Source: an uncultured Spirochaetota bacterium
GTDB lineage: Bacteria > Spirochaetota > Spirochaetia > SZUA-6 > Fen-1364
DNA length: 64,000 nt
Assembly (NCBI GenBank): GCA_963820435.1
Contig: CAWGAC010000020.1
Coordinates: 23,523 to 87,522, forward strand
Reading direction: 5' to 3'
Made by a program: the position numbers and the translations under genes. Shown piece after piece: positions 20,831-61,857 of the stretch; position 1 is the stretch's first letter; the number at the start of each line of letters is the position of its first letter. The notes under the pieces were generated by a model, which had not been told where the DNA came from, did no database searches, and saw only the letters and a list, made by a program, of their open reading frames with translations.

Positions 20831-23800
20831 CTATTCTGTTGTGCCGCCCGCCGCGAGCTGACCCCAGTAGTTGTTCCCCCAGGTCCAGACCGTGCCGTCG
20901 CTCTTGAGCGCAAGTGTGTGGTAAAGCCCGATCGCGATCGCCGCTACCCCTGAGAGACCCTGCGCCTGCGCCGGTAGGAAACGGTTCGTGGCGGTGCCGT
21001 CGCCGAGCTCGCCCTGCCGGTTGTCGCCCCAGCCCCAGACCGTGCCATCATTCTTGAGCACAATTGTGCGGTTGGCGCCTGCCGCGACCGCTACTACCCC
21101 GGAGAGACCCTGTACCTGCGCCGGCACGGAGCGAGCGGCGCTGCTGAGGCCAAGCTGACCTTCGCGGATCCACCCCCAGGTCCAGACCGTGCCGTCGCTC
21201 TTCAGCGCAACCGTGTGCTCGTATCCAGCCGCGACCGCGACTACCCCGGAAAGACCCTGCACCTGCACTGGAACGGAGCGGTCCGCCGTGGTGCCGTCGC
21301 CAAGCTGGCCTAACCGATTCTCCCCCCAGGCCCAGACCGTGCCGTCGCTCTTCAGCGCAACTGTGTGGGAAAAACCTGCCGCGACCGCGACTACCCCGGG
21401 GAGACCCTGGACCTGCACTGGCACGGAGCGGTCCGCCGTGGTGCCGTCGCCAAGCTGGCCTAACCGATTCTCCCCCCAGGCCCAGACCGTGCCGTCGCTC
21501 TTCAGCGCAACTGTGTGGGAAAAACCTGCCGCGACCGCGACTGCCCCGGGGAGACCCTGCACCTCCACCGGCACGGAGCGGTTCCTCGTGCCGCCGTCAC
21601 CGAGCTGGCCGTCACGGTTCCACCCCCAGGTCCAGACCGTTCCGTCGATCTTGAGCGCAACCGTGTGATGGCCCCCTGCCACAATCGCCTTTATCCCGGA
21701 AAGACCAGGGACGAGGAATGGAAAGGATTGCTGTGTCCAGTTGGCGGCCCCAACTTCCCCGGAACTGTTCAGACCCCAGCAAAAGACCGTGCCGCCAGTC
21801 TGCAATACTGCGGAATGGAGGTCACCGGCTGCGATCATGGCTATTCCGGAAAGATCCGGCACCCGGGCCGGCTTGGATCTGACCGAGGTGGTTTCATAGC
21901 CCAACTGGCCCTTGTCATTGCCACCCCAGGTCCAGACCGTGCCGTCATTTTTCAGCGCAACGGTGTGGGAAAACCCAGCCGCGATCGCGAGCACTCCTGA
22001 GAGACGGCTAAGGCCTCCGTCACCAACCTGGCCATATTCGTTATTCCCCCAGGCCACGACTGTTCCATCGTTCCTCAGCGCAACGGTGTGAGAGTATCCC
22101 GCCGCGACTGCTATCACCCTCAAGAGACCCCACACCTGTACCGGCACGGAACGGTTCGCAGTGCTTCCGTCACCAAGCTGGCCCCAGTCATTCTCCCCCC
22201 AGGCCCAGACCGTGCCGTCGCTTTTGAGCGCAAGCGTGTGAACGGCGCCTGCCGCGACCCCTGCCACGCGAGAGAGATCTTTGACCTGCACCGGTTTTGA
22301 ACTGTCCCTTATGGTACCGTCACCAAGTTCGCCATATAAGTTTCGACCCCAGGCCCAGACCGTGCCGTCATTCCTCAGCGCAACGGTGTGGAAAAGCCCA
22401 GCCGCGATCGCGGCTACCCCGTAGAGACCCTGCACCTCCGCCGGCGCGTAGCGATTCGCGGTGCTTCCGTCACCAAGCTGGCCATGATCGTTCTCCCCCC
22501 AGGCCCAGACCGTCCCGTCGTTCTTGAGAGCAAGGGTGCAATAGTCCCCCGCCGCAATCGCCGTTACCCCCGAGAGATTCGTGACCTGAACCGGCTTGAA
22601 GTGCGCCTGGGTGGTGCCGTCACCTGGCAGGCGCAGGAGATCCAAACCCCAGGACCAGACTGTCCCGTCGCTCTTGAGCGCAACCGTGTGGGCTCCTTCG
22701 GCGGCAATCGCCGTAACCCCTGTGAGCCCGGGAACTTGCGTTGGTGTTGGGCGGTTCGTCGAGTTGCCGTCACCTATCTGACCAGACGTGTTGTCCCCCC
22801 ATGCCCACACCGTGCCGTCATTCTTCAATACTACGGTATGCCAAGAGCCCGCCGCGACCGCCGCCACTCCTGAGAGACCTGTGACCTGGTGCGGTCTGTG
22901 GTGTTCAACCGATTCCGTCGCCGCGAAGCCGGCGTTGATTCCAACCCCAAAACGATGAGGCGGCCGATCGAGCACGAGCTCAATGTCCTCGCTCATGGCA
23001 GATCGATCCATCCGAGCCTCAAGACGCGTCAGGTATATCCCGGCGCCTTCCGGGAAGGGGTTTTTCATCAGCCTGCCAGCGACCTTATGAGAGTCGGGTT
23101 CCTGGTAAGGCCCCTTCCACAGAACGGCCAATCCCCGACCGTCGCTCCCCGCGGTCTCCCGAATGCAGCCTTCCACGTATTTTTCGACATCCACCGATCC
23201 GGGCACTACTCTCTTGAACTCTATAGGCGTTGTCTCACGATTCAACGAAGAGACCGTGCTCTCGGCGATCACATACAGAGTGATCCTCGCAGCATTGACA
23301 GTGCTAACCGAAGAGATACGCAGCGGGAAAATGAGGCGGTCATGGCGGTATCTGATCGTGAACGGCGGGAGAAGCTCATTCTCGTAGTATCGCTTCTCGC
23401 TTGGCTTCAGTTTGACCGCGACAAAGTTCCAATCCCCGTGGATATAGCCATCGAGGACCTCCTGAGCCGCAGGATTGATTTGATAGCCGTTTTCCTTCAT
23501 CCAGCTCAGAAGAGCCAATGCGTCCGTCGCTCCGAGAATGCTCACCTCGTAATGTTTTAGGGTCACGCTATCGTGGGGTCTGACCCCGCCAGAACTCACC
23601 TTTGTTTCAGCGGCACCTTTGTTGTGAACCAGGATGCCCGCCTTGTGAACCGCGTAATTGTGATGGCCTTCGACTTCAAGATTGAACACCTCGACCCTCT
23701 CCTGCCGACTCGAAAGGCCTGTGACGATAAGCCCCTTGCCGCTTATCTCCTTCAGCACGTCACCTTCTCTTAGGTCGCGGGCTTCCACCCATCGCCCAAG

Positions 23801-24451
23801 CACCCCCATCCTTTGTTCTTCTTTCGGGACGTCTCGCGGGGCGGGACGGCTATCGAGTCGGTCTCCGCGGAGGACACAGAAGGGGTGGTTCACGGTGGCA
23901 CGGATCGAGATTTGACCCACCCGGAGGGTGATCATGTCACCCTCGTACTGGATCGACAGGCGCCTGAGGACCCTCGCGAGGGTCCACTTTCCGGTCGCTA
24001 TGTCGCACCCTTGGACCCGTGTCCCAGCCCCGATGCTTTCGATGGCCCGAGGTCCGTCCGCCGTGAGCACCTCGGTTCCGACAGGGAAGCATCCGCCAGA
24101 AAAGGTGCGGACTACGGGCGTCGTGTGCTGATCGAGGAACTTGAACGCGGCTTCCCCGCTCTCGACAGCTTCTGTCACATCCTCGACGGCGGGAGGGACC
24201 GGTGTGGGAATGATCCAGCCGAAGTCTTCGCCCCCGCCGGTGTATCCCGTGGAGAAGGTCATGCTGATCTCGCTGCCATTCTTGATGATGATCGCCCGCT
24301 GGTCGGCGCTCACAGCCACTGACCGTGGGCTGAAGTACCCACCATCCCCCGAGGCCCGGGGGGTGGGAAGCAAGGCCAGACCAACGACCATCAATCCGAT
24401 CCATTTTCCATTTTTCACATTTCGTTTTCCTCGACGCAGAAGATTAATCAT
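20831..24451 (-). CDS. giant secreted protein: signal peptide + DUF2330-like domain interrupted by an intein-like Hint (BIL-type) domain + ~16 RCC1 beta-propeller repeats
   Basis: 1232-aa ORF 20831..24529 (the annotated start at 24529 is TTG; the first ATG is at 24451, followed by signal peptide MINLLRRGKRNVKNGKWIGLMVVGLALLPTPRASG). Contains a GGYF...FGWIIPTPVPP motif, Hint blocks A/B/F/G, and repeated GTVWAWGxNxxGQLGDG units. Intact, no frameshifts. Confidence 0.85.
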   Translation of the reverse strand: MINLLRRGKRNVKNGKWIGLMVVGLALLPTPRASGDGGYFSPRSVAVSADQRAIIIKNGSEISMTFSTGYTGGGEDFGWIIPTPVPPAVEDVTEAVESGEAAFKFLDQHTTPVVRTFSGGCFPVGTEVLTADGPRAIESIGAGTRVQGCDIATGKWTLARVLRRLSIQYEGDMITLRVGQISIRATVNHPFCVLRGDRLDSRPAPRDVPKEEQRMGVLGRWVEARDLREGDVLKEISGKGLIVTGLSSRQERVEVFNLEVEGHHNYAVHKAGILVHNKGAAETKVSSGGVRPHDSVTLKHYEVSILGATDALALLSWMKENGYQINPAAQEVLDGYIHGDWNFVAVKLKPSEKRYYENELLPPFTIRYRHDRLIFPLRISSVSTVNAARITLYVIAESTVSSLNRETTPIEFKRVVPGSVDVEKYVEGCIRETAGSDGRGLAVLWKGPYQEPDSHKVAGRLMKNPFPEGAGIYLTRLEARMDRSAMSEDIELVLDRPPHRFGVGINAGFAATESVEHHRPHQVTGLSGVAAVAAGSWHTVVLKNDGTVWAWGDNTSGQIGDGNSTNRPTPTQVPGLTGVTAIAAEGAHTVALKSDGTVWSWGLDLLRLPGDGTTQAHFKPVQVTNLSGVTAIAAGDYCTLALKNDGTVWAWGENDHGQLGDGSTANRYAPAEVQGLYGVAAIAAGLFHTVALRNDGTVWAWGRNLYGELGDGTIRDSSKPVQVKDLSRVAGVAAGAVHTLALKSDGTVWAWGENDWGQLGDGSTANRSVPVQVWGLLRVIAVAAGYSHTVALRNDGTVVAWGNNEYGQVGDGGLSRLSGVLAIAAGFSHTVALKNDGTVWTWGGNDKGQLGYETTSVRSKPARVPDLSGIAMIAAGDLHSAVLQTGGTVFCWGLNSSGEVGAANWTQQSFPFLVPGLSGIKAIVAGGHHTVALKIDGTVWTWGWNRDGQLGDGGTRNRSVPVEVQGLPGAVAVAAGFSHTVALKSDGTVWAWGENRLGQLGDGTTADRSVPVQVQGLPGVVAVAAGFSHTVALKSDGTVWAWGENRLGQLGDGTTADRSVPVQVQGLSGVVAVAAGYEHTVALKSDGTVWTWGWIREGQLGLSSAARSVPAQVQGLSGVVAVAAGANRTIVLKNDGTVWGWGDNRQGELGDGTATNRFLPAQAQGLSGVAAIAIGLYHTLALKSDGTVWTWGNNYWGQLAAGGTTE
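21180..21630. repeat. three near-identical 150-bp tandem DNA repeats (one RCC1 blade each) inside the giant gene
   Basis: cccagaccgtgccgtcgctcttcagcgcaac...taaccgattctccccccagg recurs at 21181, 21331 and 21481, period 150 bp. The protein shows ...SHTVALKSDGTVWAWGENRLGQLGDGTTADRSVPVQVQGL... three times. Confidence 0.9.
23621..24091 (-). other. Hint / intein-like (BIL-type) domain, aa 147-303 of the giant protein, inserted within the DUF2330-like domain
   Basis: Cys1 codon tgc at 24089-24091 (CFPVGTEVLTADG = block A). TVNHPF = block B (TxxH). VEVFNLEVEGHHNYAV = block F. GILVHN = block G. The +1 codon is AAA (Lys), checked in the DNA. Confidence 0.75.
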
Positions 24452-24776
24452 ATCACAGATCGCCAATCCGAAGGCGCAGGAACTCGCCCACGGTAGGTGC
24501 CGCGCCGCTAAGCCCGCCGAGGAGGACAAGGATCACAACGGGCGAGCCCCCGGAATATTTACGGCACCGTCGTGACCGGGAACGATAGGGATTAGGAGGT
24601 GGGTGTCAGGCTGGGTTGACCCGATTACTTTGCGTCGACAGCAACTGCAATGAATTGGCGAAATCCATGTTTAGGATTCGCAAGGTAGAGGCTATCCTGA
24701 CCGGGGCGGGGTGTAAGTCTTTGCTGCAGCCCGCGCTCTATGCGCCCCGGCCTGTCCCCTCAAATGAGGGCTTGTG

Positions 24777-43444: not shown

Positions 43445-44645
43445 TTGGACATCTTTGAAAAATGCTTCACCTGGGAGGAAGCAGAGGAAGCCCGAGGAAA
43501 AGGGATGTACCCGTACTTCATCCCCATCCAGGAAAGCCGCGGCACGCGCGTGGTCATGGAAGGCAAGGAGCTCATCATGGCGGGCTCCAACAACTACCTG
43601 GGGCTTTCCTGGGACCCGCGGGTGAAGGAAGCCGCGATCGAGGCCACGCGGAAATGGGGCACGAGCTGCTCCGGCTCCCGGTTCCTCAACGGCACCCTCG
43701 CCCTGCACGAGGAGCTGGAGGCGCGGCTGGCGCACTTCGTGGGCAGGGAGCGCGCGCTGTGCTTCACCACCGGCTACCAGACCAACCTCGGCGCAATCTC
43801 CGCCCTCGTCGGGCAAGGACGAGCACATCTTCTCCGACAAGCTCAACCACGCCTCGATCATGGACGGCATTTTCCTCGCGGCGGGGATGCGCGGCAAGGT
43901 GCGCGTGCACCGCTACCTGCACAACAACATGGAGAGCCTGGAGAAGTTCCTCGCCGAGGAGCCCCGCGACGCGCCGAAGCTGGTCGTCACGGACGGCGTC
44001 TTCAGCATGGAGGGGGACATCGTGAAGCTCCCCCGGTTGAAGGAGCTGTGCACGCAGTACGGCGCGCGGCTGTACCTCGACGAGGCGCATGCGCTGGGCG
44101 TGCTGGGAAAGACGCGGCAGCGGCACCGAAGAGCATTACGGGCGTCGGCAATCACGCCGACGTGGTGATGTGCACGTTCTCGAAGTCCTTCGGCTCTCTC
44201 GGCGGGTTCGTGGCGGGTGACGACGACGTGATCGACTACATCAAGCACATGGCCCGGCCTCTCATCTTCAGCGCGAGCATGCCGCCCGCCACCATCGCCT
44301 CGGTGGGCGCCTGCCTTGAAATCATCGAGAAAGAGCCCGAGCGGGTGCAGCAGGCTGCAGGCCATCGGCCGCAAGATGGTGGCAGGGTTCAAGTCGCTGG
44401 GCTTCAACGTCGGCAGCGCGGAAACGCCCATCGTGCCGCTCCTCATCGGGGACATGGAAAAGACACTTCTCTTCTGGCGCGCCCTGTTCGACGGCGGGGT
44501 CTTCACCAATCCCGTGCTCAGCCCCGCCGTGCCGCCCGACAGCACCCTCATCCGCACCTCCTACATGGCAATCCACACGGACGAGGAGCTCGACCGAATC
44601 CTGGAGGTCGCCGGCAAAGCGGGGAAGAAGCTGGGGATTATCTAG
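43445..44645 (+). CDS. PLP-dependent alpha-oxoamine synthase (serine palmitoyltransferase / KBL / BioF family), at least 4 frameshifts
   Basis: N-terminus [34 protein letters not shown]. Fragments in ORFs 43860..44168, 43462.. and 44316..44645 (C-terminal [25 protein letters not shown]). Confidence 0.7.
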
Positions 44646-44723
44646 CCAGGGACGGCGAAGGCGCGCGAGTACAGGGACGGCGTTCGCGCCGAACGGGTAC
44701 TCCCGTATGCACGGGAGCGCGCC

Positions 44724-46572
44724 TTAGAAGAAGTCCCTCAGGCGCTGCAGGAGGCTCTTCCTGCGCGCCTCTTCCTCGTGAAAGACGCCGAGGCTGAGGA
44801 ACTTCTGGTGCCGCTGCGCCAGGAGGGATTCCACGCTCCTGCGGGAGAGCACGGCGAGCGAGGTCAGGATGTCCGCCTTGAGCGCCGCGGCCGCGCCGCC
44901 CGGGTCCTTGTGCGCGCCCACCTGCGGCTCCGACACGATCCTGTCGACCACGCGGAAGCGCAGCAGGTCCCGGGGGGTGAGCTTCAGCAGGGCCGCGGCC
45001 TCCCGGGCCTTGCCGGAATCCCGCAGCAGGATCGACGCGCACCCCTCGGGCGTGATGACCGAGTAGTACGCGTTCTCCATCATGAGCACGATGTCCGCCA
45101 CGCCGATGCCGATGGCGCCGCCCGAGCCGCCCTCGCCGAGGATCGTGGCGATGATGGGCACGGGCAGGACCGAGAACTCCTTCATGTTGAGCGCGATGGC
45201 CTGGCTGATGCCGCGATCCTCGCCGGATACTCCCGGGTACGCCCCCGGAGTGTCGATGAAGGTGAGGATGGGCCTGCCGAACTTCGCCGCCTGCCGCGCA
45301 AGCCGCAGCGCCTTGCGGTATCCCTCGGGGTGGGCCATGCCGAAGTTGCGCTTCAGGTTGTCCTTCATGTTCTGGCCCTTCTGCGTGGCCGAAGAACGTG
45401 ACGGGCATGCCGTTGAGCAGCGCGATGCCGCCCACCATCGCGGGGTCGTCCCCGAAGTTCCGGTCGCCGTGCAGCTCGAGAAAATCGTCGAAGATCAGCT
45501 CCGCGTACTGCAGGGTCGTCGGCCGCTCGGGGTGCCGGGCCAGCTCGACGCGCCGCCAGGCTTCGTTCTCCGGTGCAGGGACGGGCGGGAGCTGGAGCTT
45601 GAGCTCCAGCTCGGCCAGCTCGCGGCTGATGTCGACGTTGGACTTCTCCGCCAGGCCCTTCAGCTCGAGGAGCTTGTCGCGAAGCGTGTTTTCGCTCATG
45701 TCCTGCCCCCTTGCGGCGCGAGCGTGGGTTTTCAGCAGGAACCCGAGCGTCTTTTTCAGCTCCTTGCGCGGCACCACCAGGTCGATGAAACCCCTCTCGT
45801 AGTGGTACTGCGAGAGCGGGAAGTTCTCCGGCACCTTCTCTCGGATGGTCCCGGCGACGACGCGCGCCCCCGCGAACCGCATCAGCGCGCCGGGCTCGGC
45901 GAGGGTGACGTCCCCCAGCATGGCAAAGGAGGCGAGCACCCCCGCGGTGGTCGGGTCGGTGAGGACCACGAAATACGGACAGCGGCTCTTTTCCAGCGCC
46001 TGCGTGGCCACGGCCGTCTTGGCCATCTGCATGAGGGACAGGATGCCTTCCTGCATGCGCGCGCCGCCCGAGGCGGTGAAGACGATGACCGGCAGCTTCT
46101 TCTCCGCGCCGACCAGCATGGCGCGCATGATCTTCTCCCCGACCACCGATCCCATGCTCCCGCCGATGAACCGGAAGTCCATCACCGCCAGCACGACTTC
46201 CTGGCCGTCGACTTTGCACAGCCCGGAGACCACAGCCTCCTTGACACCGGTCTTTCAGTGCCGCGGCGGCTAGCTTCTGCTCGTAGTCGGGGAACTCCAG
46301 CGGATTGGCCGTCTCGATGTCCGCGGACAGCTCCTGGAACACGCCCTCGTCAGCGGTAAAGCGGATCCGCTCCCACGCGGTGAGCCGGAAGTGGTGCTGG
46401 CAGTGCGGGACAGGTGTAGAGGGTCGCCTCCAGCTCATGGGCCGCCGAGGGGCCGATGGCAGGAGGGGCAGGAGTTCTTCTCGTCGATGAACGAGCGTTC
46501 ATCGCGCTTCTTCTGGACCGGGTGCTCGATGAGATCCCGGATCCAGCCCTGGATCCCTTTGGAATTACTCAC
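44724..46572 (-). CDS. accDA: acetyl-CoA carboxylase carboxyltransferase, fused beta (AccD) + alpha (AccA) subunits, frameshifted at several sites
   Basis: GTG start at 46572 with an AGGAGGG RBS. AccD Zn-finger CPHCQHHF. The AccD C-terminus runs without a stop into the AccA N-terminus ([31 protein letters not shown]) in ORF 44638..46233. AccA C-terminus is ORF 44724..45368. Confidence 0.75.
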
Positions 46573-51078: not shown

Positions 51079-52939
51079 GTGACAGAAGTCGTTCTCAAAA
51101 TCATCGAAGAGTTCTCCGATGGCTTTCTCATTCTCAACGAGGACGGCCGGATAGTCTTTTTCAACGAGCTGCTCCTGAAAACAATGGGGCTGCGAAGCGC
51201 GGACATTTTTGCCCATGAAGCGGATTTTCTTGCCCATCTGGGGATCGCCGCCCCGTACGAGCCTTCCGAGCGCGAAGTGCTTGTGGAGGACCGCGACGGC
51301 ACACCCCGACGTCTGCTCGTGTCGACGCTTGCCGTGGACGGGAACAGAGGCCAGTACATACTGGCGCGCATCAAGACGGCTCCCTCGAAGGGCAACGGCT
51401 CCTCGGGGCTCGCGCGGAGGGAGCTCGAGCAGCTCTTCCGCAACATCGGGGACCCTCTGATCACCGCGGATCTCGGCGGCGTGATCACCTGCGCGAATCC
51501 TTCCTTCTACAAGATGATCGAGTGGGAACAGGGAAAGGACCTTCCCAACATAGCCGAGCTCTACGCCCATTCCGCGGAGCTGGAGGACAAGATCCTGCGG
51601 CTCGCGGAGTCGGACATGGTCTTCAATCTGGACACGCACTTCGTGACCAGGGCCAAGCAGGCAAGACGCGTGTTGGACACCTCGTGGGTGCTGCGCGACG
51701 ATCGCGGCGTCGTCACGGGCTATACGAGCCACTTCAAGGACCTCACCTACGTCAAGAATCTCGAGACGCGCCTGAAAATTTCCGAGCGCAACTACATCGT
51801 GCTCTTCGATACGATCCTCTCCTCGATCGTCATGATAGACCCGTCCGGGAAAGATCCTCAACTGCAACTACTACGCGGAAGAAATGTATGGCTACCGCTG
51901 GGCCGATCTTGTCGGGAAGCACTTCGACGAAGTGTTTCACGCGCACGGCAAGAGTCTTCGCGTCCTGCAGATCATTGCGCTGGTGGACGGAAACAAAGGA
52001 AGGTACGTGGAGACGGACGTTCCGCGCAAGTGCAGGGACGGATCCATCAAGTTTACCTACGCATCGTACTCCGCCCTCACCAGCACAACCGGAGAGATAA
52101 TCGCCTATGCCATCATGGAAAGGGACTTGAGCGAGCGCGTCCGGCTGGAAAAGAAGCTGCAGGACTCGTTCCAGCAGATCAGGGACACCCAGTCAGCGGC
52201 CATACTCGGGTTCGCGCGCCTCACCGAGTACAGGGACATGGACACCGGCAAGCACCTCGAGCGCCTGCGCGAATACACGCGCGTCCTTGCCCTCGGCCTG
52301 GCAAAGCTGCCCAAGTACTCGGGGTACATCACCGCGGACTACGTGGATGACCTCTGCCTCTCCTCGGTGCTGCATGACGTGGGCAAAGTGGGAATCGAGG
52401 ATGCGGTGCTGCGAAAGCCGGGCAAGCTCAGCCCGGCGGAGTTCGAAAAGATCAAGCAGCATGCCCGGCTTGGAGGAGAAGCGTTGAGCGCGGTGGATAG
52501 CGAGCTGAAGCAGCAGTCGTTTCTGACCATCGGCAAGGAGATCGCCTTCTCCCATCATGAGCGCTGGGACGGTTCGGGTTATCCGGCGGGAAAGAAACGC
52601 GACCAGATACCGCTCTCGGCCAGGATCGTGGCCCTTGCGGACGTCTACGACGCACTCACGAGCAAGCGCAGCTACAAGGATGCGCTCCCCCATGAAGAAG
52701 CCGTGCGGATCATCGTGTCGGAACGGGGAACGCATTTCGACCCGGAAATCGTGGATGTTTTCGAGCAGAACCTCGATGCGTTCCGCCGCATCCATCTGCT
52801 GGAGTCGTTCAAAACGGGCCTCCGGAAGCATGGACGACATCCTGAAAGCGGGCCGCGCATAGAACGCGCAGGCGGCGCAAACGTCGCGGCGCTTACTTTC
52901 GCCCCGCCCTGCTTCCTGATATACTCACGCGCGGGATGA
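51079..52939 (+). CDS. PAS-PAS-HD-GYP c-di-GMP phosphodiesterase, frameshifted near 51870
   Basis: GTG start. PAS segments (GFLILNEDGRIVFFN; LITADLGGVITCANPS). HD-GYP motifs LHDVGKVG and HHERWDGSGYP. Confidence 0.8.
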
Positions 52940-54428
52940 CCTCCAGGATCGACATCGCCGAGATACAGAAGGCCGCCCTCAGGTCGATTCCCCTCACATT
53001 CCGGCTCACCAGCCTCCCCCACGAGTCCCACGCGCTTCTGGACAGGATTCTGGAAGTGTACCTGGAGGAACTGGGACAGGAGAAGATCCTCGAGCCCCTC
53101 TCGTACTGCCTCAAGGAGCTCATCATCAACGCGCAGAAGGCGAACACCAAGCGACTGTACTTCGAGGAGAAGGGGCTCGATATCACGGGTACGAGGACCG
53201 AGTACGAGACCGGGATGAGGGATTTCCGCCGTGAATCAGCCGAGCGGCTGGAGCACTGGCTGAGCCTCCTGAAGGAAAGGGGCCTGGTCATCGGGGTCAC
53301 CTTTCATACAACAGGGGGATGTCTCGCCATCTCCGTGCGCAACAGCGCCGAGCTCACGCCCCGTGAACAGACCCGCATCTACGACAGAATCGCGCGTGCC
53401 CGGGCGTTTCATTCCTTCGTGGAGGCGCTCGCCCAGCCGCTCGATTCCTCGGAGGGCGCCGGGCTCGGCATTCTCATCCTCCTCCAGTTCCTGAAGAGAA
53501 TCGGCCTGGGCGAGGAGGCATTCGCCATCGAGACGCGCAACGGCGAAACAGTGGCCTCCCTCGCCATCCCGATGAACCAGGGTGCAGCTGGAGAAAATCA
53601 GCGTCCTGACGCAGGCCATCGTGCGGGACGTGGATTCCCTGCCGCATTTTCCCGAGACGATCGTGGAGATCGTTCATATGAGTGAGGATCCGCGCGCGAC
53701 CCTTTCCCGCATTGCCGGGAAGATCGCCACCGATCCCGCCCTCACCGCTGACCTCCTGAAGCTCGTGAACTCCGCCCACTACATGCTGCCCCGCCGGGTG
53801 AACAACATCCTCCAGGCAGTCAAGATCGTCGGGATGAAGGGCCTGCGGAATCTGCTGTACTCCTATGGCGCCCAGCAGATCATGGGTGAGAAGTACGCGG
53901 AGATGAAAACCCTGTGGGATCACTCCTACCGCACCGCGTTCTATGCATTCATGCTCGCGCGCAGCTTCAAGCAGAAGAGCGGATATCCTCGACGACGTGT
54001 ACGTGGCCGGCATCCTGCATGACCTGGGGCAGATCATCGTGACCTACCTGCACCCCGACGCCATGGAACAGATGGCAAAGTTCTGCAAGGAAAAGGATAT
54101 CCCGCTGCGCATTCTCGAGCATTTTTCCTTCGGTCTGAACCATGCCGATATCGGCGCCCTCATTGCCATGAAATGGAATTTCCCCGACCAGCTTGTGCAG
54201 GGCATCAAGTACCATCACGACCCTCTGATGGCGCCGGTGCAATACAAGGATGTCGTGTACTGCGTGTATGTGGCCAACGCATTCTGCGGCCTGGAGCGTG
54301 ACTACATCACGTTCGAGCAATTGGAGAAACCCGTGCTGGGAGACTTCGGCATACGAAGCGAGGAACAGTGCAGAAGGATTCTCGGACGGCTGCAGAAATC
54401 ATTCGACCAGCGGAGAATCAGTTTTTGA
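52936..54428 (+). CDS. histidine-kinase-like ATPase (GHKL) domain fused to an HDOD domain, frameshifted near 53590 and 53990
   Basis: N-box ELIINAQKAN and G-box SEGAGLGILIL. HDOD region: ILHDLGQIIV...HADIGALIAMKWNFP. Confidence 0.65.
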
Positions 54429-54445
54429 AAAACTCCTTCTTTCAC

Positions 54446-54474
54446 TTGACAATCATCCAGAAAACGCATACATA
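54446..54474 (+). promoter_or_regulatory. putative sigma70-type promoter of the ilv-leu leader (TTGACA, 17-bp spacer, TACATA)
   Basis: Perfect -35 hexamer TTGACA at 54446..54451. A -10-like TACATA lies at 54469..54474, 10 bp upstream of the leader ATG. Confidence 0.45.
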
Positions 54475-54483
54475 TACACCGTT

Positions 54484-54576
54484 ATGAGCGGCAGCGCGGG
54501 CTCTCTTTCAATTCTCTGCGGACTCGTCCTTATTGGCGTACTCCTTGTGAGGAGCAGCAGACGCCCGGAAGGGTAG
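54484..54576 (+). CDS. ilv-leu leader peptide (30 aa, Leu/Ile/Val-rich)
   Basis: [30 protein letters not shown] has 11 of 30 residues as L, I or V, including the run [10 protein letters not shown]. It sits between the promoter and the terminator hairpin, and its stop overlaps an antiterminator-capable segment. Confidence 0.6.
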
Positions 54577-54605
54577 CGCGCAGCCGTTGGCAGATGCAAT
54601 GCGCG

Positions 54606-54640
54606 GGCCGTTCTCCTTCCGGGAGAACGGCCTTTTTTTT
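54606..54640 (+). terminator. attenuator / intrinsic terminator upstream of ilvD
   Basis: ggccgttctcc-ttcc-gggagaacggcc is an 11-12 bp perfect stem, followed by T8. The upstream cccggaaggg (54565..54574) is complementary to the 3' arm of the stem (alternative antiterminator). Confidence 0.7.
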
Positions 54641-54691
54641 CGGAACCCGCGGCGCATGCCGCCGGGTAAGAGCGGAGGAGGCAGCGTCAGG

Positions 54692-56385
54692 ATGGACACA
54701 GCAAAGCGTCGCAGTGCGGTGGTTCAGGAGGGCGCCTCGCGCGCCCCGCACAGGAGCCTGCTCCACGCCCTGGGGTGGGACGGCGGAGCCCTCGGCAGGC
54801 CGGTCATCGGGATCGCCAACTCGTACAGCGAGCTGGTCCCCGGCCATCGCGATCTTCGAAGGATCGTGGAAAGCGTCCGCGAAGGCATCTGGTCGGAGGG
54901 CGGGGTGGCGTGCGAGTTCGGCACCATCGGCGGTGTGCGACGGAATCGCCATGGGGCACGAGGGGATGAAGTATTCGCTGCCCAGCCGCGACCTGATCGC
55001 GGACTCGGTGGAGATCGTCGCCCAGGCCCACGCGCTGGACGGCCTGGTCCTTGTCGGAAGCTGCGACAAGATCGTGCCCGGCATGCTCATGGCCGCGGCG
55101 CGGCTGGACATTCCCTCGGTCATCGTCTCCGGGGGGCCCATGCTCGCGGGAGACTGCGACGGCAAAGAGGTGGGGCTGGAGGCGGTATTCGAGGCGGTCG
55201 GCCGTCACGGCGCGGGGAGAATGACTGATCGCGAGCTGGCGCGGCTGGAAACACGCGCATGCCCGGGCTGCGGCTCCTGTGCCGGCCTGTTCACGGCGAA
55301 CACGATGAACTGCCTCTCCGAGGCGCTGGGGATCGCTCTCCCCGGGCAACGGGACCATTCCCGCCGTGTACGCGGACCGGTGCCATCCTCGCCCGGGAGA
55401 CGGGCCGGGCCGCCGTGCGGGCGGTCCGCGCAGGGACTCACCGCCGCGCAAGGTGCTTACGCGCGCCGCCTTTCTCAATGCGGTCGCCCTTGACATGGCC
55501 CTCGGCGGCTCCACGAACACCGCGCTCCACCTGCCTGCAATTGCCGCCTCCGCGGGCGTTCCCCTCTCACTGGACGATTTCGACGAAATGAGCGCGAAGG
55601 TCCCTCATCTCTGCGCGCTGGCCCCTTCGGGGCCGTACTACATGGAGCACCTTCACTCTGCCGGCGGAGTCATGGCGGTGATGAAGACGCTGGCAGGTAT
55701 GGGACGGATCGACGGGGGCGCGGCCACTGTGACAGGTTCCCCGCTCTCTTCATCTTACGAAGGAGCGCCGGCGCCTGATGGAAAATATATCGCGCACCCG
55801 GAGAAGCCCTACCATGCCGAGGGAGGCCTCGCGGTGCTGAGGGGAAACCTCGCGCCTGAGGGCAGCATCGTAAAAAAGGCCGCGGTGGACCCCTCCATGC
55901 TCGTTCATGAAGGCCCTGCGCGCGTGTTCGATTCTGAGGAGGAGGCGCAGGAAGCGATCCTGGCGAAGAAAGATCAAGCCGGGGGACGTCATAGTGATCC
56001 GCTACGAAGGCCCGCGAGGCGGGCCCGGGATGCGTGAAATGCTCTCCCCCACCGCCGCAATCGCGGGGATCGGCCTGGACCGGGAGGTGGCGCTCATCAC
56101 TGACGGCAGGTTCTCCGGAGCCAGCCGCGGCGCATCAATCGGCCACGTCACGCCCGAGGCCGCGGCCGGCGGCCCCATCGGCAATCGTGCGCGAAGGGGA
56201 CCGCATCAGGGTCGACATCCCGGGAAAGAGGCTGGACCTTCTGATCGATGAGAAGGAATGGAAGATCCGCACGGACGGTTTCCGTCCGCGCGAAACACGG
56301 ACGCTGAGCGCGTTCCTCGACTCGTATGCCCGGGCGTCGGTCCCGCCTCGCATGGCGCCTTGCGCGAAACAGGAGGAGATCCGTC
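54692..56385 (+). CDS. ilvD: dihydroxy-acid dehydratase, multiple frameshifts
   Basis: ATG at 54692 with a [36 protein letters not shown] and [20 protein letters not shown] (Fe-S Cys motif) are present. The C-terminal part is in ORFs 55366..56037 and 56034... Confidence 0.85.
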
Positions 56386-58138
56386 ATGAAACGCTCAGGC
56401 GCGCAGCTCCTCGTCGAGGCTTTGAAAGCGGAGAAGGTCGAAATCATCTTCGGTTTCCCCGGCGGGGTCGTGATCCCCGTGTTCGACGCGCTGTACGGGG
56501 AACGGGAGCTCAGGCTCGTCCTGGTCCGCCACGAGCAGGGAGCGGTGCACGCGGCGGACGGCTACGCGCGGTCCACGGGCCGGGTCGGCGTCTGTCTTGT
56601 CACGAGCGGACCCGGGGCCACCAACACGGTGACGGGGCTGGCGACCGCCAATTTCGACTCGGTGCCGCTCGTCGTGCTCACCGGGCAGGTCTCGCGCAAC
56701 ATGATCGGCAACGATGCATTCCAGGAAGCCGACATCGTCGGAATCTCGCGCTCGGTCACCAAGCACAACTACCTGGTCACCGACCGCAAGGACCTCGGCA
56801 GGATCCTGAGGGAGGCCTTCTACATCGCGCGGAGCGGGAGACCGGGCCCGGTGCTCGTGGACATCCCCAAGGACGTTCTCATCGAAGCCTCCGCGGAGCC
56901 GCTTCCGGACACCGTTTCCATCCGCGGCTACAACCCCGTGTACAAGGGGCACCCGCTGCAGATCCGGAAGGCGGCGCAGGCCCTTGCAAAGGCGAAAAAA
57001 CCCCTCTTCTACGTGGGCGGCGGCCTGAACATTTCCGGTGCCGCGGAGGTCTTCCGCAAGGTCGTGCAGACGGTGAACGTTCCCACCATCGCTTCTCTCA
57101 TGGGGATCAGCGTTCTCCCGAGCGAGCATCCGCGATTCCTCGGCATGCTCGGCATGCACGGCACGTACGCGGCGAACACGGCTGTTCAGAACTGCGACCT
57201 GCTGTTCGCCATCGGCACCCGATTCGACGACCGGGCCACGGGGGACCTCGCGAAGTTCGCACCCCACGCCACGGTCGTGCACGTCGACATCGACCCTTCC
57301 TCCATCTCGCGCAATGTCGCGGTGGAGATCCCCATCGTGGGAGATGCCCGTACGGTGCTCGAGGAACTCCTGCCTCTGCTCCAGCCCCCGTCCCAGGACG
57401 AATGGCTGCGGGAGACCGACGGGTGGAAACGCGATCACCCGCTGGCGGAGATCGAGGGCAACGGGGCGCCTGTCGCCGACGGCAGTCATCCGCGCCATCG
57501 CCGCGGCCTTTCCCGATGCCATCGTCACAACCGAAGTCGGCCAGAACCAGATGTGGACCGCGCTGTACTATACCTTCCGTGAGCCGCGGTCGTTCCTCAC
57601 CTCGGGCGGCCTGGGCACCATGGGCTACGGGTTTCCCGCGGCCATCGGCGCGCAGCTGGGCAATCCCGGCCGGCGGGTCATCGACATCGCGGGAGACGGC
57701 TCCATCCAGATGAACATCCAGGAGCTGGCCACCGCCGTGACCGAGCGCCTCCCCGTGATCGTCGCCATCCTGAACAACGGCTACCTCGGGCATGGTCCGC
57801 CAGTGGCAGGAGCTTTTCTACAAGCCGACGCTATTCGGGGGTGTGCCTGGAGCGGACCTTCGACTGCCCTCCGGACTGCGCGGAGCCGACCGGGAATTGC
57901 CCGCCGTACGTGCCTGATTTCGTGAAGCTCGCCCAGCGCATACGGCGCGGAGGGAATCCGCGTCACCCGTCCCTCGGAGATCGATGCCGCGCTGGGGGAG
58001 GCGCTCCGGGCCACCGACCGCCCTCTTTTCCTCGACTTCCAGATCGAGCGGGAAGCAAACGTGTGGCCGATGGTGCCGGCAGGCGCCGGCATCGACGAGA
58101 TGATGAACGCCGGAGGATCGGGAAGACAGGGGGTTGGC
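56386..58138 (+). CDS. ilvB: acetolactate synthase large subunit, frameshifted; apparently read through in frame into ilvN
   Basis: ATG at 56386 with an AGGAGGAG RBS. TPP-enzyme N-terminal, central and C-terminal domains ([18 protein letters not shown]; [16 protein letters not shown] in a shifted frame). Confidence 0.85.
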
Positions 58139-58650
58139 ATGAAGCACATCATTTCCCTGCTCGTGGAAAACAAGCAGGGCGTCCTTGCCAGGATTTCCGG
58201 GCTCTTCTCGGGCCGCGGCTACAACCTGGAGAGCATCACCGCGGGTGTCACCACCGACCCCACGGTCTCGCGCATCACCCTGGCCTGCACCGGCGACGAC
58301 GCGGTGGTGGAGCAGATCAAGAAGCAGCTCAACCGGCTGATCGACGTGATCAAGGTCACCGAGCTCACCGACGTGCCCGCGCTGCACCGGGAGCTGATGC
58401 TCATCAAGGTGAGCGCCCGGGGGCGCGCAGCGGGGAGAGATCTTCCAGGTGGCGGACGTGTTCAAGGCCCAGGTCATGGACGTCGGGCCACGACACCATG
58501 TCCGTGGAGCTCACGGGCTCACCCGAAAAGATCGACGACTTCTCTTCCCTGCTGCAGCCCTACGGCATCGTGGAGATCGCGCGCAGCGGGGTCGTCTCCA
58601 TGGAGCGGAGCAAGAAAGCAGGCGGCGCGGCGGCGGCCGTGCGCGCGGAT
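58139..58650 (+). CDS. ilvN: acetolactate synthase small subunit (ACT domain), frameshifted near 58430
   Basis: [36 protein letters not shown]. The C-terminal part is in the 57841..58710 frame. The end is approximate. Confidence 0.75.
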
Positions 58651-60255: not shown

Positions 60256-61857
60256 ATGAGCGGGAAGAAGATCATAATCTACGATACGACCCTGCGGGAC
60301 GGCATGCAGGGCCAGGGCATCAATTACACGCTGGAGGACAAGGTCCAGATCGCCCTGGCCATGGACGAGTTCGGCATCGACTACATCGAGGGCGGCTTTC
60401 CGCTGTCCAACCGCAAGGAGGCCGAGTTCTTCCAGCGCATGCGCAAGGAGAACCTGCAGCATGCAAAGGTCGTTGCCTTCGGCTCCACCAGGAAACCGCA
60501 CGGGAAGGCAGCCGCCGATCCCCAGATCGCCGCCCTGCTGCATGCCGAAACCCCCACGGTCATCGTCGTGGGAAAGACCTGGAAGGCTCACGTGCGGCAC
60601 GTGCTGCAGACCACGGAAGAGGAGAACCTCGCGATGATCGCGGACTCCCTCGCAGCGCTGAAAAAGGCAGGGACGGGAGGTCTTCTTCGACCTGGAGCAT
60701 TTCTTCGACGGGTACAAGGACGACCCTGAGTACGCGCTGCGCCGTGCTGACGACCGGCGCATGAGGCGGGCGCAGACTGCCTCGTGCTGTGCGACACGAA
60801 CGGGGGGACGCTGCCTTCGGAGGTGGCGCGCATCATGGGCGAGCTTCGCCTCGCCGAGCTGGGGCCCATCGGCGTCCATTTCCACGACGACACGGGCAAC
60901 GCGGTGGCCAACGCGCTCACCGCCTTGGAGCGCGGAGCGTCGCACGTGCAGGGGACCATCAACGGCTGGGGCGAGCGGTGCGGGAACCTGAACCTCTGCG
61001 TCCTCGTTCCCACCCTCTGCCTGAAGATCGACTGCGAGATCAGCGGCCTGCGCCAACCTGAAGCACCTCACGTCCCTTTCGCGCTTCGTCGCGGAGAAGG
61101 CAAACATCATCCCCGAGAAGCGCCAGCCCTACGTGGGTGAGGCCGCATTCTCCCACAAGGCGGGCCAGCACGCGGACGTCATCAGCAAGGCGCCCGCAGC
61201 TCATGGAGCACATGGACGGCGCCCTCGTGGGCAACGAGCGGCGCGTGCTGCTCTCCGAGCTTGCCGGCAAGTCCACCATCGTGAAGAAGATGGCGCGCTA
61301 CGGGGACTTCGAAAAATCCTCCGAGGTGGTATCGCCGTCTGCTCGAGCAGCTCAAGGAGCTCGAAGAAAAAGGCTACGAATACGAGGCAGCCGAGGCTTC
61401 ATTCGACCTCGTCATCCGCCGGGCCCTCGGGCTGTACAAACCCCTTCTGGAGCTCAGCAACTACCACATGGAGAACTACAAGTCCGGCGACACACCCGCA
61501 AAGACCGTCGGCAGGATTTTCGTCCGCGTCAACGGCAACGTGCTCATGGGAGCCGCGGTGGGCGACGGTCCCGTGGACACACTGAACGGCGCGCTCCGCG
61601 ACGCCCTGCTCCCCCTGCACCCATTCCTGAAGAAGCTGAAGCTCACCGACTATCGCGTGCGCGTGCTCAACCCTGAGAAGGCCACCGCGGCACGGGTGCG
61701 GGTTTTCATCACCACCTCGGACGGCGAGCATACCTGGGACACCGTGGGCGCGGACGAGAACATCATCGAGGCATCCTGGCAGGCGCTCGTGGACGCCGTG
61801 GAGTACTACTACAACAACTTCGTTGTGGAGCGCGAAGAGCGGCAGGCTCCAGGGTAA
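60256..61857 (+). CDS. second IPMS-family enzyme, CimA/LeuA2-type ((R)-citramalate synthase-like), multiple frameshifts
   Basis: MSGKKIIIYDTTLRDGMQGQGINYTLEDK...GIDYIEGGFPLSN. The C-terminal LeuA_dimer domain is in ORF 61468..61857. Confidence 0.7.

Follow-up and report, generated by a model that had tools for sequence, protein, structure and literature searches.

In Escherichia coli and Salmonella, the ilvGMEDA and ilvBN operons are preceded by the leaders ilvL and ivbL, each with an ORF of about 30 codons carrying a multivalent cluster of Leu, Ile and Val codons and with a terminator before the first ilv gene. In these enterobacterial leaders the last part of the ORF supplies the antiterminator strand, and a ribosome that reaches the stop codon covers it. 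In actinobacteria, leader ORFs are frequently leaderless. A Leu-rich or branched-chain amino acid (BCAA)-rich attenuator peptide before an ilvD-first operon has been studied experimentally in Staphylococcus aureus (PMC5794164) and Listeria monocytogenes (PMC5864092), and the leaders there reportedly respond to BCAA supply and act together with CodY. For ilvBNC of Corynebacterium, the published work describes a conserved BCAA uORF (ilvB-II motif), alternative hairpins and a terminator before ilvB (PMC10272879, PMC11857589, PMC1262725).

We analyzed a 64,000-nt stretch of DNA from an uncultured Spirochaetota bacterium, hereafter the window, in which the segment 54446-54640 on the plus strand precedes genes of BCAA biosynthesis. 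The initial annotation had interpreted this segment as a ribosome-mediated attenuator, and this interpretation was supported by conservation, by linkage to BCAA genes and by folds in which a ribosome was masked. We concluded that the segment is very likely a leader-peptide transcription attenuator of ilvD-ilvB-ilvN-leuA-cimA that responds mainly to Leu and Ile.

The leader resembles ilvL and ivbL in its Leu/Ile/Val ORF of about 30 codons, its intrinsic terminator and its antiterminator strand at the end of the ORF. It differs from them in that it shows no sequence similarity, belongs to Spirochaetota and precedes an ilvD-ilvBN-leuA-cimA operon. Also unlike ilvL and ivbL, it has no Shine-Dalgarno sequence, has its ATG about 9 nt after the -10 element and is probably leaderless. 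Across its family, Leu and Ile dominate while Val is not enriched, and the 1:2 pause or protector hairpin was not detected, again in contrast to the enterobacterial leaders. A leaderless start, probable for the window, would be a likeness to the actinobacterial leaders. As reported, the S. aureus and Listeria leaders share the ilvD-first operon, but they are from Bacillota and are unrelated in sequence. The three-hairpin model of Corynebacterium reportedly has mutational support, whereas the window leader is a computational prediction, and the two differ in phylum and sequence.

The promoter of the leader would consist of a TTGACA -35 box at 54446-54451, read directly from the sequence, and a putative -10 hexamer TACATA at 54469-54474. 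The perfect TTGACA and the 17-nt spacer were as the initial annotation had described them, but the -10 hexamer it had paired with them is weak. This promoter was not called by a consensus scan because the second hexamer matches only three of six positions; it also lacks the final T. The leader ORF at 54484-54576 has 30 sense codons and a TAG stop (ATG at 54484, TAG at 54574-54576), and its translation is exactly as first quoted, with 6 Leu, 2 Ile and 3 Val making up 11 of the 30 residues. Leader codons 8-22 (54505-54549) form the regulatory Leu/Ile/Val block, and within it lies a TC-CTT-AT core (54527-54533) that is invariant among relatives. In the ORF list the leader frame is open back to 54250, and this extension, which overlaps the upstream gene in another frame, is not conserved.

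The purine-rich end of the leader reads CCCGGAAGGG at 54564-54573. It had been described as overlapping the stop codon, but it actually abuts it. With the first base (U) of the stop codon and the AGCG after it, it forms region 2 (54564-54578), the 5ʹ strand of the antiterminator, which spans the last leader codons and the stop codon. A variable spacer follows at 54579-54604, for which per-sequence folds predicted a small hairpin inside the antiterminator loop. The intrinsic terminator occupies 54605-54640, with a stem of 54605-54617 paired to 54621-54633, a TCC loop and a T8 run at 54633-54640. The hairpin and T8 had been reported as an 11-12 bp perfect GC stem; both are present, but the stem has 13 pairs, of which 8 are G-C and 2 are wobble, closed by the 3-nt loop. 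Region 3 (54609-54623, CGTTCTCCTTCCGGG) is common to the antiterminator and the terminator; it takes in the 5ʹ arm and the loop and runs 3 nt into the 3ʹ arm. Within it, TCCTTCCGGG (54614-54623), the complement of CCCGGAAGGG, takes up the final 4 nt of the 5ʹ arm, all of the loop and those same 3 nt of the 3ʹ arm. The competition between antiterminator and terminator that had been proposed therefore stands, but it is directed at this apical stretch rather than at the 3ʹ arm as such. The T run ends 51 nt before the ilvD ATG at 54692, in line with the distance of about 50 bp given earlier, and GGAGGAGG precedes that start codon.

Relatives of the leader were gathered through contigs with ilvD homologues and through a gene-agnostic DNA pattern for the terminator applied across metagenomes. 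Six loci found through close ilvD homologues, and a Spirochaetales metagenome-assembled genome (MAG; L001), carried TTGACA, a short Leu/Ile/Val-rich ORF and a terminator with a CCTTCC-type apex before ilvD. The terminator pattern gave 138 metagenome matches, of which 43 were followed by the start of a BCAA gene no more than 400 nt downstream; the remaining 95 were unrelated terminators. The leader ORF was present in all 43 BCAA-linked matches, so that relatives with the hairpin but no conserved ORF, which the initial annotation had named as a refutation, did not occur among them. After de-duplication the family comprised 44 distinct members, from metagenomes and the one Spirochaetales MAG, which is the sole carrier among the matches listed for the ilvD fragment in the genome collection, mostly from distant phyla. 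Three near-identical, independently assembled loci with 90-91% ilvD identity (L082, L150 and L152) keep the hairpin and a leader of the same 30 codons as in the window, and this equal length indicates that the leader itself is free of the frameshift damage seen in the genes downstream. A locus with 67% ilvD identity (P0010/L087) has a different context, without the leader. A Spirochaetia host is indicated by the murC of the window, whose named relatives are all "Spirochaetia bacterium" MAGs, at 65-71% identity.

In every member of the family the terminator is followed by a BCAA gene: ilvD in 33, ilvB-ilvN(-leuA) in 10 and leuA-cimA in 1. The ilvB-first loci include L098, L102, L117, L123, L133, L140, L184 and L200, and L135 is the one in which leuA-cimA comes first. 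Upstream, in contrast, an HDOD/HD gene is the neighbour at 24 of the 43 loci, with other genes at the remaining 19, so that the element belongs to the BCAA operon. This distribution bears on a simpler explanation, in which the hairpin and T8 terminate the upstream HDOD/HD gene (53943-54428) and the ORF is a chance frame in its 3ʹ UTR. The hairpin does follow that gene on the same strand, at a distance of 177 nt, an HDOD gene is the upstream neighbour in those 24 relatives, and an open frame of 30 codons is unremarkable alone. However, a TTGACA promoter box stands between the HDOD stop codon and the ORF, with TTGAC kept in 42 of 44 relatives, and the ORF and hairpin stay where the upstream gene differs, yet a BCAA gene lies downstream in 44 of 44. 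The leader frame is also open in all 44 members as against at most one for other frames, and complementarity between the ORF end and the terminator apex is maintained by compensating changes. We consider a terminator of the HDOD/HD gene hardly credible.

The leader frame, scored as open from ATG to stop over at least 20 codons, was found in 44/44 members, and the other two frames in 1/44 and 0/44. Leader length varied from 26 to 41 codons and the N-termini were variable, while a Leu/Ile-rich core, for example ISVITILIPVLILIA, was common to all 44. The C-terminus is almost always Pro-(Glu/Gly)-Gly-stop, and each leader of the family closes with a purine-rich segment whose pairing partner is the loop and distal 5ʹ arm of the terminator. 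In L133 and L200 the leader diverges (…LALIIISLIIIGAAPIIAGG), and its pairing with the terminator apex is weaker, at -10 to -12 kcal/mol. When variable sites were counted by codon position, the counts were 18/16/17 in ten leaders of 30 codons and 14/15/13 in seven leaders of 29 codons. No excess at the third codon position, which we looked for in these leaders, was found, and this flat variability indicates that the amino-acid sequence is without purifying selection. The absent excess argues against a conserved peptide, not against translation. What the family retains is the open frame, the Leu/Ile codon cluster and the position of the stop codon, which is the signature of a regulatory uORF.

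Codon content was compared with the genes of the window. Leu and Ile make up 18% and 11.5% of the family leaders versus 10% and 5.6% in window genes, about a twofold enrichment, while Val was not enriched (5.7% versus 7.5%). Minor codons were favoured in the leaders: CTT 42% versus 19%, ATT 54% versus 18% and GTA 30% versus 7%. The 11 of 30 Leu/Ile/Val residues in the window leader are by themselves only mildly above the background of about 23% in window genes; what is beyond chance is that a Leu/Ile-rich frame is conserved in all relatives.

The hydrophobic core LVLIGVLLV, with RSSRR after it, is reminiscent of a short membrane-spanning helix anchored by positive charge, and leader peptides that function in trans exist, as reported for peTrpL (PMC7298713). 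The ORF could on this basis encode a functional small membrane peptide, with a terminator that is constitutive or leaky and senses no amino acid. Against such a peptide stand the even spread of variable sites over codon positions, the length range together with the unconserved N-terminus, and the exclusive association with BCAA biosynthesis genes. The conserved Pro-Glu/Gly-Gly end, moreover, is accounted for by RNA pairing, since it is most simply a by-product of the pairing constraint on CCN GRR GGG. A functional peptide is thus very unlikely to be the reason for the conserved frame, and the attenuator remains the preferred reading.

The terminator folded at -24.1 kcal/mol (z = -4.8), and none of 200 shuffles was as stable; the unconstrained fold of the window leader also includes it. 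Among 42 sequences, 98% of the terminator cells were paired, 29 cells were compensatory and 0/500 shuffles reached the observed values, part of this conservation being imposed by the search pattern used to gather the relatives. The Y/R position that the pattern leaves free in the stem covaries perfectly, with C-G in 30 sequences and U-A in 12.

The antiterminator fold at 54560-54624 had an energy of -34.1 kcal/mol (z = -2.6), and 1/200 shuffles was as stable. In the window it pairs CCCGGAAGGG (54564-54573) with UCCUUCCGGG (54614-54623), extended by AGCG:CGUU. The position of a ribosome decided between the two structures when its footprint was masked and the transcript was cut at the end of region 3 to mimic nascent RNA. 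A ribosome masked on the conserved CUU codon gave the antiterminator in 8/8 sequences, while one masked at the stop codon covered region 2 and left only the terminator in 8/8 sequences, as expected of the mutually exclusive folds that the initial annotation had proposed. Duplex energies also placed the best 15-nt leader partner of region 3 at the end of the ORF in 8/8 sequences.

Because indels at the apex shift the register, we used alignment-free duplex energies for the pairing of region 2 with region 3. Across 26 distinct haplotypes, cognate pairs summed to -433 kcal/mol versus -389 +/- 10 for permuted pairs, and 0/100,000 partner permutations matched the cognate energy, in a test that ignores phylogeny and may reflect perhaps 3-4 independent events. 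Compensated pairs include CCAGGAGGG with CCUUCCUGG, CCGGGAGGG with CCUUCCCGG, CCCCGAGGGG with CCUUCGGGG, and CCCGGGAGGG with CCUUCCCGGG. In column-wise counts, 93-95% of antiterminator cells were paired, and in the count with 93.4% paired, 99-234 of 500 shuffles reached the observed values. That this count does not rise above the shuffles is explained by the helix itself, which consists of runs of C and of G and, when slid by 1 nt, keeps 83-84% of its cells paired, and by the apex indels that shift its register. The antiterminator is supported by these predictions, short of proof. The purine motif AAGGAG in the ORF (54546-54553 region) was considered as the main antiterminator strand and rejected, as it pairs with 5 nt of the window terminator and is absent in the L001 subfamily.

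In RNA free of ribosomes, region 2 was predicted to pair with pyrimidine-rich segments of the ORF with a mean probability of 0.71 over 44 sequences. The position of this partner varies, and the 1:2 fold of the ORF region did not exceed shuffled sequences in stability (z = +0.7). Three copies of the pyrimidine motif (C)TCCTT are present, as the invariant TC-CTT-AT codons (54527-54533), in a CUCCUU-GUG-AGGAG mini-hairpin in the ORF (54541-54546) and in the 5ʹ arm of the terminator (54613-54618), and for each of them the purine-rich region 2 is a potential partner. The first two copies may act as alternative region 1 partners.

A different way to control the same terminator would be a leader RNA that binds a ligand, tRNA or protein, as a riboswitch, a T-box or a TRAP- or CodY-like system, with the ORF being incidental. 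T-boxes control BCAA operons of Bacillota. Published work also lists ppGpp riboswitches and weak candidates for ilvD and ilvB riboswitches (PMC8632094), and the spacer at 54579-54604 folds into a hairpin in individual sequences. However, this hairpin is without column-wise support, with 53% of its cells paired. Nearly the whole transcript upstream of the terminator is ORF, and apart from the terminator and region 2 only the codon block TC-CTT-AT is conserved. No Rfam family rose above noise either. A search of 53500-55500 with Rfam 15 (4227 models) at E-values up to 10 gave leader hits at chance level only, the best being BcKCsr2 (E = 0.53), whose 17.4 bits fall short of the threshold of 40, and no match to a T-box, ppGpp or other riboswitch was found in the leader. 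A scan of the whole window at gathering thresholds returned two tRNAs elsewhere and no leader family. Control by a bound ligand, tRNA or protein is therefore a highly improbable alternative to the leader-peptide attenuator. The Leu, Thr, His, Trp and leu/phe leaders of Rfam are of the same functional class, but the window element matches none of them, and the spirochaete leader would be a family separate from the Rfam leader families.

The start of the leader suggests how it might be translated. In 42/44 family members, TTGAC precedes the leader ATG by 35-40 nt, and an AT-rich TAYATA or TAAAG block is conserved among relatives at the spacing of a -10 element. In the window the -10 hexamer ends 9 nt before the ATG, and across the family the ATG follows the -10 block by 6-9 nt. 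No Shine-Dalgarno sequence was found before the leader ATG. Judging from the spacing between promoter and ATG, a leaderless ORF, or a 5ʹ UTR no longer than 3 nt, is probable, and it is on this inferred start that translation of the ORF rests. We suggest, tentatively and without favouring it, that the attenuator runs from a leaderless mRNA, with coupling of the first ribosome through 5ʹ-end (70S-type) initiation rather than through a Shine-Dalgarno sequence and a 1:2 pause hairpin. If true, such coupling could explain the lack of a detectable conserved 1:2 structure, and the likely leaderless start without a detected 1:2 hairpin would offer a compact model for coupling without the full four-segment design. 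A DNA-binding repressor may additionally act at the promoter.

From these elements we infer the following regulation. Transcription would start at, or a few nt before, the AUG at 54484, and a ribosome would translate the 30-codon leader as RNA polymerase proceeds. With an ample supply of charged tRNA-Leu, tRNA-Ile and tRNA-Val, the ribosome would reach the UAG at 54574 and cover region 2 (54564-54578). Region 3 would then pair with region 4, and the 13-bp terminator with its U8 would stop transcription 51 nt before ilvD. When Leu or Ile, and less so Val, is scarce, the ribosome would stall at codons 8-22 and leave region 2 free to pair with the emerging region 3 through the 10 bp of CCCGGAAGGG:UCCUUCCGGG and the additional AGCG:CGUU. 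This pairing would sequester the 5ʹ arm of the terminator, and the polymerase would read into ilvD. In this scheme Leu and Ile would dominate the response.

The genes under this predicted control matched NCBIfam models for dihydroxy-acid dehydratase, the large and small subunits of acetolactate synthase, 2-isopropylmalate synthase and citramalate synthase, which agrees with the five-gene ilvD-ilvBN-leuA-cimA operon of the initial annotation. All are on the plus strand: ilvD, the first regulated gene, at 54692-56200 (TIGR00110/NF002068), ilvB at about 56386-58100 (TIGR00118), ilvN at about 58136-58650 (TIGR00119), leuA from about 58674 (TIGR00973), and cimA, the last gene of the operon, at 60256-61700 (TIGR00977). 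The ends of ilvD, ilvB and ilvN are approximate because the genes are frameshifted in this assembly. The citramalate route to isoleucine is known from Leptospira. The presence of cimA in the operon implies that isoleucine would be made by the pyruvate (threonine-independent) route, and the proposed switch would also gate this route, consistent with the Leu- and Ile-dominated codons of the leader.

A full-length ilvD query aligned to the window in five pieces and three frames. Against the contigs L081-L084 it also broke into several pieces each, at positions differing from those in the window, while 16 orthologous metagenome contigs gave a single frame. The single-frame orthologues together with the differing break positions indicate that the breaks in the operon genes of the window are assembly errors (indels). 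We considered a decaying pseudogene operon and rejected it on the same observations. Many genes elsewhere in the window are also broken by frameshifts, for example at 51079-52939 and 43445-46438. The window looks like an error-prone long-read assembly, and protein-level annotation of the contig looks unreliable. Elsewhere in the window, an ORF of 1232 aa on the minus strand (20831-24529) has an N-terminal region containing a Hint/intein-like segment, and more than 15 RCC1-like repeats (…DGTVWAWGENxxGQLGDG…).

We found no description of such a leader-peptide attenuator in spirochaetes in the literature. The mechanism itself is already known, and the present locus would extend textbook leader-peptide attenuation to an uncultured lineage of Spirochaetia; if the leaderless reading is true, no earlier family of leader-peptide attenuators would be on record for Spirochaetota. 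The family, with at least 44 distinct sequences, lies outside Rfam and could improve the annotation of BCAA regulons in metagenomes.

An "ilvB motif" restricted to Leptospira and an "ilvD motif" restricted to Veillonella have been listed as weak riboswitch candidates (PMC8632094). In Veillonella intestinalis and Veillonella sp. R32 (L017 and L018:5700-5983), we observed a Leu/Ile/Val-rich uORF of 49-50 codons before ilvD (MLGLVVVIISLLIIIDIIVI...). The two uORFs differ by an in-frame indel of one codon, and a terminator lies 26-50 nt before ilvD. The Veillonella ilvD motif may instead be a leader-peptide attenuator. By extension of the leaderless reading, if that is true, some of the weak riboswitch candidates before Veillonella ilvD would be attenuators with a Leu/Ile/Val uORF.

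Unrelated Leu/Ile/Val-rich mini-ORFs with terminators were also seen before ilvD at L055:1970-2127, L045:3170-3334, L019:3935-4051 and L008:5520-5610. Their hosts are MAGs of Desulfobacteraceae, "Proteobacteria" and Dehalococcoidia, and examples of their peptides are MKLPIVNILLVLVIIVEVIITTSWRRGS and MIQKSTKLTVISLIIILVVGVLSCHEVMG. This kind of regulation seems to have evolved repeatedly.
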